Source: Myxococcota bacterium (GTDB lineage: Bacteria; Myxococcota_A; UBA9160; UBA6930). From it: a stretch of DNA of 64,000 bases. The translations under genes and the position numbers were made by a program. The notes beneath the pieces are model-generated. The model was not told where the DNA came from. It was given only the letters and a program-made list of their open reading frames with translations, and did no database searches. Shown one piece after another: positions 731 through 7,654 of the stretch. Position 1 is the stretch's first letter. Each line of letters begins with the position of its first letter. The stretch is taken from positions 17,825 to 81,824 of the forward strand of contig JANQOX010000026.1 of assembly GCA_028285625.1 (NCBI GenBank), written 5' to 3'.

Positions 731-1582
731 CTAGCGCCCGGCGAGCTCGGCCCGCAGCGCGGCCTCGAGCTCGACCGAAGAGAGGCGATGGACCCGCTGG
801 AGCGCGCGCTCGAGGTCGCGGGTGCGCACCCAGACGTCCAAGGTGCGGGCCAGGCTGGCGTCGCCGCTGCGCCTTGCCAGCAGGTCGACCAGGGCGCGCG
901 AAATCAGGTAGGCGTCGGCCGCTCGGGCCGGCGGGACCCCGGCCAGGTTCGGGCCGGAGAGCTGGGCGATCGAAAGCCACCCCCCATCGCGCGAAACCGC
1001 GGCGAGCCGCGCCCACTGACCCGCCGTGAGGCGCCGGGCACCGTGGGCGCGCGATTCGAACCACTCGGCGAGGCCCTCGTTCCACCAGGCGGGCGCCACG
1101 AGCGACGGCGCCCGGGCGTCCAGGGCGGCGTGCACCAGCTCGTGGTGCAGCGTGCGCGAGAGCGTGGTGGTGACGGCCACGTCGCCCCGCACCTGGATGG
1201 TGCGCCCGTAGAAGCCGGCCACGCCGAATGGAAAGAGACCCGCGAAGCGGGCGTCGAACCACGCCGGGTCCTGGATCCAGACGGCGATCTTGCGCTCGGG
1301 CCGCAGCCCCAGGCGCGTGTCGAGGGCGTCGTAGGCGCTCTCGAGCGTGGCCAGCACGTCGCGCTCGAAGCGCACCGAGCCGTGCCAGCCCGACGCGCGA
1401 TCGAGGTCGACGTCCTGGTGGAGCACGAAGTGAGGCGACTCACGGCGCTCGAAGCGCCCATCGGCCCCCTCCGCGCGCACCTCGACCGAGACCGCCCCGC
1501 ACACCAGCAGCCAGGCCACGGCAGCGCGCATCGCCCGCCATGCGGGCCGACCCCGGAGGGTGCGGCAGGTACGGGCTCTCAT
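731..1582 (-). CDS. secreted zinc metallopeptidase, peptidase MA (gluzincin)-like
   Basis: 283-aa ORF. HELVH is followed by WWNEGLAEWFE, with the Glu 18 positions after the second His, the M1/MA-clan HExxH...E layout. Signal-like MRAAVAWLLVCGAVSVEVRA; the internal ATG at 1531 is an alternative start. Confidence 0.8.
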   Translation of the reverse strand: MRARTCRTLRGRPAWRAMRAAVAWLLVCGAVSVEVRAEGADGRFERRESPHFVLHQDVDLDRASGWHGSVRFERDVLATLESAYDALDTRLGLRPERKIAVWIQDPAWFDARFAGLFPFGVAGFYGRTIQVRGDVAVTTTLSRTLHHELVHAALDARAPSLVAPAWWNEGLAEWFESRAHGARRLTAGQWARLAAVSRDGGWLSIAQLSGPNLAGVPPARAADAYLISRALVDLLARRSGDASLARTLDVWVRTRDLERALQRVHRLSSVELEAALRAELAGR

Positions 1583-1927
1583 GGCCTTCGAGCCTAGCCG
1601 GCGGCGAAGCGGTCTGGGTTGTGACCGGATCCGTCACGGGCCGGTGCGAGGATTTCCATGGAGCCGCCGCCGTCCCCCCGACGCCCGGCTCGCCCGGACC
1701 GAACCCACGACCGAGCCGAGACCGGAACCGCACCGAGTCCGGCCCGGGCGCGGGACGGCACGGGGCACCGGACCCCTCCCCGGCGCCTCGGGCCACCCCC
1801 CTCGGTTCGAGCGACGGGCGTCGGGCGGCGGATTTCCGAGGACTGTTGCGGCCGCCCCGATCGGAGCGGCGGCGGAGCGTGGGCCCCCACGCCCGCGCGA
1901 CCCAAAACGACCCCGGAGGACACCGTC

Positions 1928-3619
1928 ATGAGCGAAGCCGCCGCCCTGCCCGACCGAACCGATCGCTTGCCCACGCCGCCGGGTCCGCCTGGCGAGCCGG
2001 CCGTTCCCGACCGGCCCTCCGAACCGGCCGAGCGGGCACGCCACGCGGGAGACGAGCGCTCCGAGGCCACGGGCCGCAGCGCGCGCCCCGCCGCGCTCGA
2101 GCTTCGGCTCTCGGTGCGCGACCCCGAGGTCTGCGAGGCCGTGACGGCCCACCCTGCCGGCAGCGACCGCGACCGCTTCGTCGAATCGGCCCTGCGCATC
2201 GGCGTGCTGGCCCTGCGAGACGCCGCCGGCCGGGTCGACGCGGATTCGGTGCGGCACGAGGGCGAGCGCCTGATGGCCGATCTCACCCGGCGCCTCGAGG
2301 CCCATCGGCAGACGCTCTCGGAGCACCTCTCGGGAACCCTGCGCACCTACTTCGACCCCGAGAGCGGGCGCCTGCCCGAACGGATCGAGCGGCTGGTGCG
2401 CCGGGACGGCGAGCTGGCAGAGCTGCTGCGCCAGAAGGTCGGGGCCGACGACTCGGAGCTGGCGCACACGCTGGCCCGGCATGTCGGCGAGGGCAGCCCG
2501 CTGCTGGCCATGCTGGCGCCCGACGCCGCCGGGGGCCTGGTGGCCACCCTGCAAGACCGTCTGGCCGAGGCGTTGGCGGGCGAGCGCGAGCGCATCCTGC
2601 GCGAGTTCTCACTGGACCATCGCGAGGGCGCGCTCTCGCGACTGGTCTCGGAGCTCGATGAGCGCCACGACCTGATGGGCCGCAAGCTCGACCAGCGCAT
2701 CGACGCCGTGGTGTCGGAGTTCTCCCTCGATCAGGAGGACTCGGCGCTCTCGCGCCTGCTCGGGCGGGTCGAACACGCCCACGAGCGGATCAACCGCGAG
2801 TTCTCGCTCGACCACGAGGGCGCAGCGCTGGCGCGCATGCGCAAGGAGCTGATGACGCTGCTCGAAGAGCAACGCGGCGCGGCTGCGCGCTTTCAGGAAG
2901 AGGTGCGCACCGCGCTCTCGACCCTGCAGGCCCGGCGCGAAGAGGCAGCGCGAAGCACGCGCCACGGCGACGACTTCGAGCACGAGGTCACGCTGTTCGT
3001 GCGCGGCGAAGCCCATCGCTCGGGTGACGTCGCGAGCCACGTGGGCAAGGGCACCGGCGCCATCCGGCACTGTCGCAAGGGCGACGTGCTGGTCGAGCTC
3101 GGCGCCGAGGCCGCGGCGGCGGGCGCGCGCATCGTGGTCGAGGCCAAGGAAGACAAGAGCTTCGACCTGGGCCGCGCCCTGGCAGAAGTCGAGCAGGCGC
3201 GACGCAACCGCGAGGCCTCCGCCTCGCTGTTCGTCTTCTCGAAGCAGTCGGCACCCGAAGGCCTCGAGCCGCTGGCCCGCTATGGGCCAGACGTCGTGGT
3301 CGTCTGGGATGCCGACGACCGCGCGAGCGACGTGTTCTTGCGCGCAGGCCTCTCGGTCGCGCGTGCACTGGCCACCCGCGCGCCCGGCTCCGACCCCGAG
3401 CGCGACGCCGATCTGGGCGCCATCGATGCTGCCATTCTCGAGATCGAGCGCCAGGCCGGCGGGCTGGACGAGATCCGCACCGCGGCCGAGACCGCACGCA
3501 AGGCGGCCATTCGCATCGACGACCGCGCGCGCATCGTGCGCGACGGGCTGTCGTCGCAGGTGGTGGTGCTCACCGAGCGGGTCGGCGACCTGCGGCGGGC
3601 GGAACGGACCGTGGAATGA
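1928..3619 (+). CDS. hypothetical coiled-coil protein with C-terminal PD-(D/E)xK-like (restriction-endonuclease-fold) core
   Basis: ORF 1658..3619 trimmed to ATG 1928, which follows GGAGGA (1915-1920). Long Glu/Arg/Leu-rich helical centre with three EFSLD...ALSR(L/M) repeats. The C-terminus reads GDDFEHEV...KGDVLVEL...IVVEAKEDKSF...SASLFVFS, giving D 3083-3085 and E-A-K 3140-3148. The architecture is reminiscent of RmuC/DUF2130. Confidence 0.7.
   Translation: MSEAAALPDRTDRLPTPPGPPGEPAVPDRPSEPAERARHAGDERSEATGRSARPAALELRLSVRDPEVCEAVTAHPAGSDRDRFVESALRIGVLALRDAAGRVDADSVRHEGERLMADLTRRLEAHRQTLSEHLSGTLRTYFDPESGRLPERIERLVRRDGELAELLRQKVGADDSELAHTLARHVGEGSPLLAMLAPDAAGGLVATLQDRLAEALAGERERILREFSLDHREGALSRLVSELDERHDLMGRKLDQRIDAVVSEFSLDQEDSALSRLLGRVEHAHERINREFSLDHEGAALARMRKELMTLLEEQRGAAARFQEEVRTALSTLQARREEAARSTRHGDDFEHEVTLFVRGEAHRSGDVASHVGKGTGAIRHCRKGDVLVELGAEAAAAGARIVVEAKEDKSFDLGRALAEVEQARRNREASASLFVFSKQSAPEGLEPLARYGPDVVVVWDADDRASDVFLRAGLSVARALATRAPGSDPERDADLGAIDAAILEIERQAGGLDEIRTAAETARKAAIRIDDRARIVRDGLSSQVVVLTERVGDLRRAERTVE
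2600..2839 (+). repeat. three imperfect 45-nt coding repeats, (R/S)EFSLD-x3-4-(G/S/A)AL(S/A)R(L/M)
   Basis: Copies at 2600-2644 (REFSLDHREGALSRL), 2714-2758 (SEFSLDQEDSALSRL) and 2795-2839 (REFSLDHEGAALARM). Conservation is at the peptide level, with synonymous differences between copies. Confidence 0.85.
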
Positions 3620-7135: not shown

Positions 7136-7654
7136 CTACGGCTTCGGCACGTCGCGGTCGAGCACGGTCTTGCGGCCGTCGCGCTCGGCGTTGCGGATGG
7201 CCTGGTCGGCCACCTGCCGCAGGATCTCGGACAACGGGCCGAGTACGCCGTCGGAGGTGTTCATGCCGCTGCGGGCACGCACGTAGTCCTTGAGGCGGCT
7301 CGCGACCACCAGCACTTCGCGCGGCACGTCGTCCTGGGGCGGCGTTTCGGCCGGCCGCACGAGCCGGCGTCGCGGCGCGCGAGCGCCGGCCTTCGGGGCC
7401 GAGAAGGCAGCCGGCGCACGCGCCGGCTTCGGGGCGGGGGCCGCCGCGTCGGGCCGCGCCGGGGCCTGCTTCTCCACGGCCCAGGCCTCGCGGTGGCGCG
7501 CTTCGGGCAGGTGCACCTCCCAGCAGCTGACCGAGCAGAAGACGAGCGCGGTCCGCACGCGATTGCAGGTCGACACGTTGCAGGCCCAGTACGGGGCGCG
7601 CAGGGCGATCGGCTCCTTGCAAGCGCTGCATCGCCGCCAGGCGTCGTCCGTCAT
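7136..7654 (-). CDS. zinc-finger / bacterial histone-fold fusion protein (ZZ-histone-like)
   Basis: The N-terminus has C9-x2-C12, C25-x4-C30, C40-x3-C44, H48 and H54. An Ala/Pro/Lys/Arg-rich linker follows. The C-terminus reads EVLVVASRLKDYVRARSGMNTSDGVLGPLSEILRQVADQAIRNAERDGRKTVLDRDV, which has the VLVV.S..K......MNTS....L........A...GRKTV...D pattern of bacterial histone-fold (DUF1931-like) proteins. Confidence 0.7.
   Translation of the reverse strand: MTDDAWRRCSACKEPIALRAPYWACNVSTCNRVRTALVFCSVSCWEVHLPEARHREAWAVEKQAPARPDAAAPAPKPARAPAAFSAPKAGARAPRRRLVRPAETPPQDDVPREVLVVASRLKDYVRARSGMNTSDGVLGPLSEILRQVADQAIRNAERDGRKTVLDRDVPKP

Follow-up and report, generated by a model that had tools for sequence, protein, structure and literature searches.

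What does a 563-residue protein do when no family in the domain databases matches it and its gene stands without a partner? The question is raised by a complete open reading frame (ORF) at positions 1928..3619 (plus strand) of a stretch of DNA from a Myxococcota bacterium (assembly GCA_028285625.1, contig JANQOX010000026.1, positions 17,825-81,824 of the forward strand). The window, by which we mean this whole stretch of 64,000 nucleotides, has a G+C content of ~72%. The original prediction described the product as an orphan coiled-coil protein with a thrice-repeated motif and a PD-(D/E)xK-like C-terminal core. Our analysis indicates that it belongs to a large family whose members are very probably stand-alone PD-(D/E)xK nucleases with a conserved helical regulatory or oligomerisation module. 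Taken jointly, the evidence leans modestly towards a stand-alone Mg2+-dependent nuclease that would probably act as a defence-type effector.

The nuclease prediction is carried by the C-terminal part of the protein. Residues 330-492 were modelled with AlphaFold2 from 83 sequences (a pLDDT, or predicted local distance difference test score, of 88.3; predicted template modelling score, pTM, 0.82). The model contains a PD-(D/E)xK nuclease-fold domain at residues 346-488 (2963..3391, plus strand), with the order α1-β1-β2-β3-α2-β4-β5-β6-α3. Its α-βββ-α-β core is built of helices at 346-364 and 414-428 and strands at 368-371, 387-390, 401-407 and 432-438. Three groups of residues stand out, all on the plus strand. 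E351 (2978..2980; context DDFEHEV) lies on helix α1 in an HGxxFE motif whose H346, G347 and F350 are invariant in the homologue alignments. D386 (3083..3085; KGDVLVEL), a predicted metal ligand, forms part of a GD pair directly ahead of strand β2, and E405-A406-K407 (3140..3148; VVEAKEDK) make up the (D/E)xK motif at the end of strand β3. In the predicted structure, E351, D386 and E405-x-K407 occupy the canonical α1/β2/β3 positions of PD-(D/E)xK enzymes. The E, D and E-x-K motifs are all present as the original prediction described them.

Conservation follows the same residues. In 83 homologues H346, G347, F350, G385, D386, E405, K407, R425, N427, R428, W460 and D468 are invariant, and E351 is kept in at least 90%; the catalytic set is also invariant or nearly so in a separate set of 28 sequences. 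Two divergent relatives from viral contigs, 34-37% identical, keep the conserved residues of the domain except R425 and D468, and E351, D386, E405 and K407 are among those kept.

Structure searches with Foldseek point the same way. Against the PDB, the top match was McrC (6ut7_G; E 8e-3, probability 0.99, template modelling (TM) score 0.48), with further matches to EcoT38I, MspJI, BamHI, DdmD, Cap4, Can2, Hef and the SPARDA nuclease. Uncharacterised proteins of giant viruses took the first two places in the BFVD search (E ~1e-4, TM 0.62), ahead of Mrr-like, restriction endonuclease, Cas4, MmcB and endonuclease I proteins. One by one these matches of the model are weak, and collectively they agree on the PD-(D/E)xK fold. 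No sequence relative was found in the PDB, either with the single sequence or with a profile. The original prediction had proposed two checks of its PD-(D/E)xK-like core, a structural match to the restriction-endonuclease fold and conservation of the catalytic residues. Both came out in its favour: the Foldseek lists are dominated by PD-(D/E)xK nucleases, the topology of the domain model is canonical, and the predicted catalytic residues are conserved to the extent given above.

The protein is not an orphan, as had been proposed. A homologue search at E<=1e-3 gave more than 1,843 proteins, without a Pfam domain on record; the best 120 of them are 45-65% identical over ~90% of the length. When 1.84 billion representatives clustered at 50% identity were searched with a profile, the number of clusters retrieved rose from 727 at E<=1e-30 to 2,078 at E<=1e-10 and 3,104 at E<=1e-3, and 397 loci were found by scanning 185,579 species genomes, one genome per species. 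The family, whose members have ~510-570 residues, spans at least eight phyla. Planctomycetota contribute the majority, and the other carriers are Dehalococcoidia/SAR202, Latescibacterota, Myxococcota, Gamma-, Beta- and Alphaproteobacteria, Acidobacteriota, Spirochaetaceae and UBP7. Mean full-length identity is 0.53-0.62 within phyla versus a flat 0.45-0.50 between phyla. The grouping is mostly phylum-coherent, apart from the Latescibacterota copies, which group with Dehalococcoidia at 0.60 identity. No family in Pfam, NCBIfam, PADLOC or PHROG matches the 563-residue protein, and the source annotations of the homologues read "hypothetical" or "coiled-coil domain-containing". Among the carriers in culture are Symmachiella dynata, S. 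macrocystis and Thiolapillus brandeum; a literature search by locus tags and accessions of the homologues from cultured organisms found no papers.

Ahead of the nuclease domain lies a conserved helical N-domain (residues 60-345; 2105..2962, plus strand), recognised by homologue conservation and by DSSP assignment of the model. This region of ~285 residues is rich in R (14.7%), L (14.7%), A (12.6%) and E (11.9%), in agreement with the Glu/Arg/Leu-rich helical region that had been claimed. The full-length AlphaFold2 model has a mean pLDDT of 70 and a pTM of 0.34, so its domain packing is unreliable, and its secondary structure is usable. In this model, helices of 20-37 residues extend across 66-291; the next helix, of 65 residues (300-364), continues into the nuclease domain. 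Within the N-domain the motifs YFDPxxGR (141-148) and SPL (190-192) are invariant among homologues.

The most distinctive feature of the N-domain is a repeat with the consensus EFSLD-x3-(S/G)AL(S/A)R(L/M). Three copies were identified on the plus strand with a hidden Markov model (HMM) of the repeat: REFSLDHREGALSRL at residues 225-239 (2600..2644; 35.7 bits), which DSSP and the DNA repeat D1 also support, SEFSLDQEDSALSRL at 263-277 (2714..2758; 41.2 bits) and REFSLDHEGAALARM at 290-304 (2795..2839; 39.1 bits). All three are visible as DNA repeats, 70-79% identical, at 2603, 2717 and 2798. Copies across the family score 35-48 bits, whereas the best score that 415 shuffled family sequences gave was 7.7 bits. 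The three EFSLD...ALSR(L/M) copies of the original prediction were therefore recovered (36-41 bits), with the correction that the third reads ALARM and not ALSRM. Each belongs to a helix-loop unit of 27-38 residues, and every unit has an invariant Arg (R238, R276 and R303). In the model one helix ends in EF, SLDxxx(S/G) forms a loop, and ALSRL opens the next helix. Because the repeats sit at helix junctions, the region is better described as a set of helix-loop units than as one continuous coiled coil; the earlier coiled-coil label holds for the helical character and is otherwise loose.

The number of units varies little. Three are present in 59 of the 83 homologues, usually spaced 38 + 27 residues apart, and the remaining 24 have four, the fourth being a 27-residue insertion that marks one subclade. 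The relatives on viral contigs show a uniform spacing of 27 + 27. Possible extra cryptic copies further upstream (YFDPESGRF..., DSELAKTL, PDxSxGLL) were not detected by the repeat HMM. Beyond the nuclease domain, the protein closes with a 73-residue helix (residues 490-562; 3395..3613, plus strand; DSSP, pLDDT 82-88), and in the model this helix and that at 300-364 could pair as a stalk.

The family is not a branch of the known helical nucleases that it recalls. Like RmuC (PF02646; E. coli YigN), its N-terminal part is long and helical and precedes a PD-(D/E)xK core of the form E...D...(D/E)AK, and it is encoded by a stand-alone gene with no methylase. Aligned by eye, RmuC reads GE-35-PD-14-DAK and the family protein FE-35-GD-19-EAK, with the same E-to-D spacing of 35 residues. 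Unlike RmuC, it carries the EFSLD...ALSRL units and a helix of ~75 residues after the nuclease domain, and it has no N-terminal hydrophobic segment (highest 19-residue Kyte-Doolittle mean 1.32 over the whole protein). The distributions also differ, RmuC being found mostly in Gammaproteobacteria (PMC3424549) and the family in Planctomycetota and Dehalococcoidia. The RmuC profile PF02646 gave no match to the family protein at E<=1. Profile-profile comparison with hhalign reached a probability of 0.28 against E. coli RmuC and of 0.23 against an 11-sequence RmuC alignment of low diversity, a shallow profile because the search for RmuC homologues yielded Enterobacteriaceae alone, at >=84% identity.

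DUF2130 (PF09903 / COG4487) appears among the PD-(D/E)xK families whose function is unknown (PMC3424549). Its likeness lies in the helical-plus-nuclease architecture as given in the original prediction, and it is set apart by HMM alone, with no match of PF09903 at E<=1. The RmuC/DUF2130-type architecture thus holds only as an analogy, as a helical part and then a nuclease core in the DSSP assignment; membership in either family was rejected, since there is no HMM match to either and no profile-profile signal with RmuC.

The nearest functional analogue, judged by likeness of architecture and location, appears to be ShdA of the Shield system. ShdA is a single protein with a helical part and an RmuC nuclease, suffices for defence and degrades DNA in vitro (PMC10270631); it occurs in defence islands and embedded in restriction-modification (R-M) loci (PMC10270631, PMC11090510). 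The family protein shares with it the combination of a long helical region and a PD-(D/E)xK nuclease in one chain, and some of its relatives also lie in defence islands, as described below. It differs in that ShdA has an N-terminal transmembrane anchor, where the family protein has a disordered Pro-rich head, and a recognisable RmuC domain with PADLOC-type models, neither of which matches the family protein at E<=1. In addition, Shield is confined to Pseudomonas. The best structural neighbours of the catalytic domain are the McrC/Mrr-type domains of type IV restriction nucleases, which likewise have no cognate methylase. This likeness is limited (TM ~0.48, E ~1e-2), and the family lacks both a McrB-type GTPase partner, save a coincidental one at one locus (L095), and an SRA or winged-helix DNA-reading domain, in whose place it has the helical-repeat domain. 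CoCoNuT CnuA was rejected as a match on its published description (PYD/CARD, coiled coil, REC; PMC11090510). The protein thus defines a new family inside a known superfamily and a known architectural theme, with a repeat module that is previously undescribed and without database coverage.

The surroundings of the relatives bear on the function. Among 100 neighbours at ±2 positions outside Planctomycetota, the commonest Pfam families were PDDEXK_1, HTH_3, Peptidase_M78, AAA_11/12, RNase_H_2, UvrD, SIR2_2, NOV_C, SNF2 and DDE transposase. The ±2 neighbours of non-planctomycete loci matched 84 PADLOC families at E<=1e-30, versus 20 for those of planctomycete loci. One family gene lies between a type I R-M system with an NsnB-like ATPase on one side and a SIR2-pAgo (1,325 bits) on the other. 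Another has Wadjet JetABCD and an HTH-M78 gene on one side and a helicase disrupted by the insertion sequence (IS) IS3 on the other. A third locus begins with a MmeI-like methylase and an HNH gene, continues with the family gene, and then carries AbiEi, KAP, Gabija GajAB and a type I R-M system. A DrmA/MZB helicase and McrBC stand beside the gene at L095, and at L096 an AAA_13 ATPase lies 52 bp upstream of it and Vsr-Dcm-Eco29kI further downstream. One family gene is located in an IS-rich region, and one has an integrase upstream and AddAB after it.

In three related loci (L002:4033-16847, L010 and L011) the family gene stands between HmaA (E 1e-174) and HmaB (E 5e-112), and these loci also carry PARIS-like (AriAB) and HEC-01 genes. 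HmaA is a SNF2-NOV_C protein and HmaB a DUF1156 methylase, and published work describes the hmaA-hmaB interval as a hotspot where defence systems insert (PMC11232893). The cargo from the family gene to HmaB differs between L002 and L010, and the family gene stays beside HmaA.

There are also signs of mobility. A block of helicase plus family gene is 91% nucleotide-identical in two Dehalococcoidia genomes whose flanks are unrelated. Some genomes have two copies: L018 and L020, from one Dehalococcoidia metagenome-assembled genome (MAG), are 95% identical with ~200 bp of shared flank, and L065 and L081, both on chromosome OZ242027.1, are 65% identical. In IMG/VR only two contigs carry divergent relatives (L089:8001-9488 and L090:8001-9524). 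These contigs of ~183-188 kb are syntenic, with all genes on the plus strand, and phage-like; the relatives lie ~3 kb upstream of a topoisomerase II large subunit (phrog_543), in a DNA-metabolism block, and jumbo-phage status is only putative.

No obligate partner emerged from these comparisons. The search consisted of an all-against-all clustering of ORFs from 80 loci, and no neighbour family was common among them beyond lineage synteny. The largest position-consistent family occurred at nine of the 80 loci, all from Pirellulales, as lineage synteny, and a generic short-chain dehydrogenase/reductase (SDR) family lay near the gene at 14 of 80, in scattered positions. The large same-strand upstream genes were considered as a single family and this was rejected, as they are HmaA, the PDDEXK-RNaseH-SF1 helicase, RpoC, DnaE and an unknown protein. 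A same-strand neighbour with a gap below 50 bp was found upstream at 14 of 73 loci and downstream at eight of 76; most loci look monocistronic, with gaps of ~100 bp or more. In the window, likewise, there is no methylase or ATPase near the gene. The statement of the original prediction that the gene stands alone, without a methylase or ATPase partner, therefore agrees with both the window and the 80 loci. Its proposal to examine the neighbourhoods of relatives gave the same absence of a conserved partner, together with something it had missed, the frequent defence islands around them.

How the family functions has to be weighed between defence and three other explanations. A defence role is suggested because the relatives outside Planctomycetota are found repeatedly in defence islands. 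Such a location applies to about seven of the ten annotated non-planctomycete neighbourhoods and not to the window or to Planctomycetota, a count that comes from only ~10 neighbourhoods, some of them of related genomes, and without a formal background model. The patchy distribution, multiple copies and cassette transfer are further points in its favour, and at the level of the family we consider a defence-type effector role close to an even chance. Besides the small basis of the count, several results weigh against this reading or against the nuclease assignment on which it depends. For a defence gene, the between-phylum identity (45-50%) is unusually high. In a Pfam scan the neighbours in Planctomycetota are genes ordinary for that phylum (PSD1, PSCyt, DUF1501, kinases), and the Pirellulales loci have conserved synteny with murD-, fumC- and hemN-like genes, read by eye from the sequence. 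The studied gene itself has a housekeeping context in the window, so this copy may be a domesticated or dormant member. PADLOC has no model that matches the protein, searches by tblastn gave no matches in PLSDB for plasmid carriage or in INPHARED for carriage by phage genomes, and the Foldseek search of the PDB gave no match at E<=1e-3.

Much of this would also fit an RmuC-like genome-maintenance nuclease, chromosomally inherited and processing intermediates of recombination or replication (for example hairpins, inverted repeats and breaks), with the helical domain as a dimerisation or DNA-binding scaffold. We regard this role as rather unlikely on balance, and it remains a serious rival to defence. 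The architecture parallels that of RmuC, including the E-to-D spacing, and the identities of 45-50% between and 53-62% within phyla reflect very strong purifying selection; the housekeeping synteny of Pirellulales and the context in the window also agree with it. AddB/AddA-type genes lie directly downstream of the family gene in a Dehalococcoidia genome (same strand; L093:11779-18448) and in Sedimenticola (convergent; L013:11566-17660), an adjacency that may be a coincidence or a link to double-strand-break processing. DnaE or RpoC is found upstream in two lineages, and the viral-contig relatives sit in a DNA-metabolism block near topoisomerase II. Against maintenance speak the patchy spread (397 loci in 185,579 species genomes), the several copies in some genomes with cassette-like transfer, the repeated residence in defence islands and the absence of a sequence relationship to RmuC. 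Moreover, neither LexA nor Cheo boxes were found upstream of the family gene at 77 loci, and SOS control was rejected.

It is improbable that the protein is a trans-acting effector, the nuclease arm of a multi-gene module with a PDDEXK_1-RNase_H_2-SF1 helicase or HmaA and inactive alone, although some loci suggest such an arrangement. A helicase of this type (AAA_11/12, MkoA-like) adjoins the family gene at L012:5326-8757, L020:5815-9825 and L091:11635-16293 (= L015), upstream in Dehalococcoidia and 20 bp downstream in a Pseudomonadales MAG, where IS3 splits it into a 251-residue N-terminal fragment and a 932-residue remainder. The helicases are 45% identical across phyla, with a different gene order, and therefore a two-gene module is possible in a subset of loci. 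The gene is also kept beside HmaA in the three Latescibacterota-type loci while other cargo varies, and the AAA_13 ATPase of L096 is close by. However, such partners occur in only a few of ~90 loci and are unlike one another, most loci are monocistronic with gaps of ~100 bp or more, and the window has no such neighbour. Slightly less probable still is that the protein lacks catalysis and serves as a helical structural or scaffolding component, or that it is a nuclease of RNA instead of DNA. The protein is mostly helical, its substrate cannot be read from sequence, and among PD-(D/E)xK domains there are inactive ones and ones that cut RNA (Steczkiewicz 2012, PMC3424549; CoCoNuT paper, PMC11090510). 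Conversely, the full E/D/ExK set is invariant in more than 80 sequences, down to 34% identity, which favours retained catalysis, and the closest structural neighbours are DNA endonucleases.

In the favoured reading the protein, a soluble member of the family, would be a Mg2+-dependent endonuclease, acting most likely on DNA, with D386 and E405 as the metal-binding residues and K407 as the one that activates water. The helical parts may mediate oligomerisation, and they may keep the nuclease silent until there is a trigger to sense, for example foreign DNA or a DNA structure. Such a nuclease would act without an obligate partner gene, as a self-contained effector against phages or mobile elements.

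The limits of the gene were also evaluated. The reading frame is open over 1658..3619 (plus strand) and would give 653 residues if read from its first ATG. The start at 1928, also an ATG, is plausible because homologue alignments begin only at about residue 57 of the 563-residue protein. The G+C content by codon position over 1928-3619 (0.81/0.50/0.89) has a coding-type signature. The 563-residue product that had been proposed from 1928 is thus supported by the homologue alignments and by the coding pattern, and public collections contain an identical protein (P0001). Residues 1-55 (1928..2092, plus strand) form a variable head with 20% Pro and pLDDT <50, unaligned in homologues, which bears out the disordered Pro-rich head of the original prediction. 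A scan for sigma-70 promoters and terminators around the gene gave nothing informative.

Antisense ORFs of up to 306 residues overlap the family gene, in the window at 1594-3500 (minus strand) and also at homologous loci. The clustering of their counterparts, seen in 40-74 of 80 loci, is due solely to the conservation and GC-richness of the sense gene. The top ORF clusters, considered as candidates for a conserved partner, proved to be these antisense ORFs inside the family gene itself; such artefacts could mislead a neighbourhood analysis based on ORFs.

Upstream in the window, a divergent gene (731..1582, minus strand) encodes a 283-residue HExxH...NEGxAE protein with a hydrophobic N-terminus and a gluzincin-like motif (HELVH...NEGLAEW). 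The gene had been called divergent from a metallopeptidase; the orientation and the HExxH motif hold, and the protein has no Pfam match at E<=1e-3. It is not a conserved partner, and as a candidate M78/ImmA-type regulator it was rejected, with no Pfam match and no retention beside homologues. Other neighbours in the window are a fatty acid hydroxylase, Sir2, an Asp/Arg hydroxylase, an SDR, DUF188 and an AI-2E transporter, and the same genes occur on a second contig. Between the SDR and DUF188 genes is an ORF of 172 residues (7136-7654, minus strand) with a Cys-rich N-terminus (CSACK...C...C...C), an Ala/Pro-rich middle and no Pfam match.

A family with hundreds of 50%-identity clusters, ~47% identity from phylum to phylum and a complete predicted active site, for which Pfam, NCBIfam and PADLOC have no model, represents a clear annotation gap. 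Either role can be tested, as Symmachiella dynata and Thiolapillus brandeum are carriers in culture and there is no ambiguity about the predicted catalytic residues. Should the maintenance role be true, RmuC may have its functional counterpart in this family in Planctomycetota and Chloroflexota. Should it be a defence effector, poorly studied phyla would yield a further nuclease system that needs one gene only and has a regulatory domain of a new type. More tentatively, and with somewhat less than even confidence, the family may be a widespread single-gene immune system of environmental bacteria, in which a PD-(D/E)xK nuclease is held in check and triggered by a helical-hairpin EFSLD...ALSRL sensor. 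Such a system would span Dehalococcoidia, Latescibacterota, Gammaproteobacteria, Planctomycetota and Myxococcota while being absent from defence libraries and family databases.

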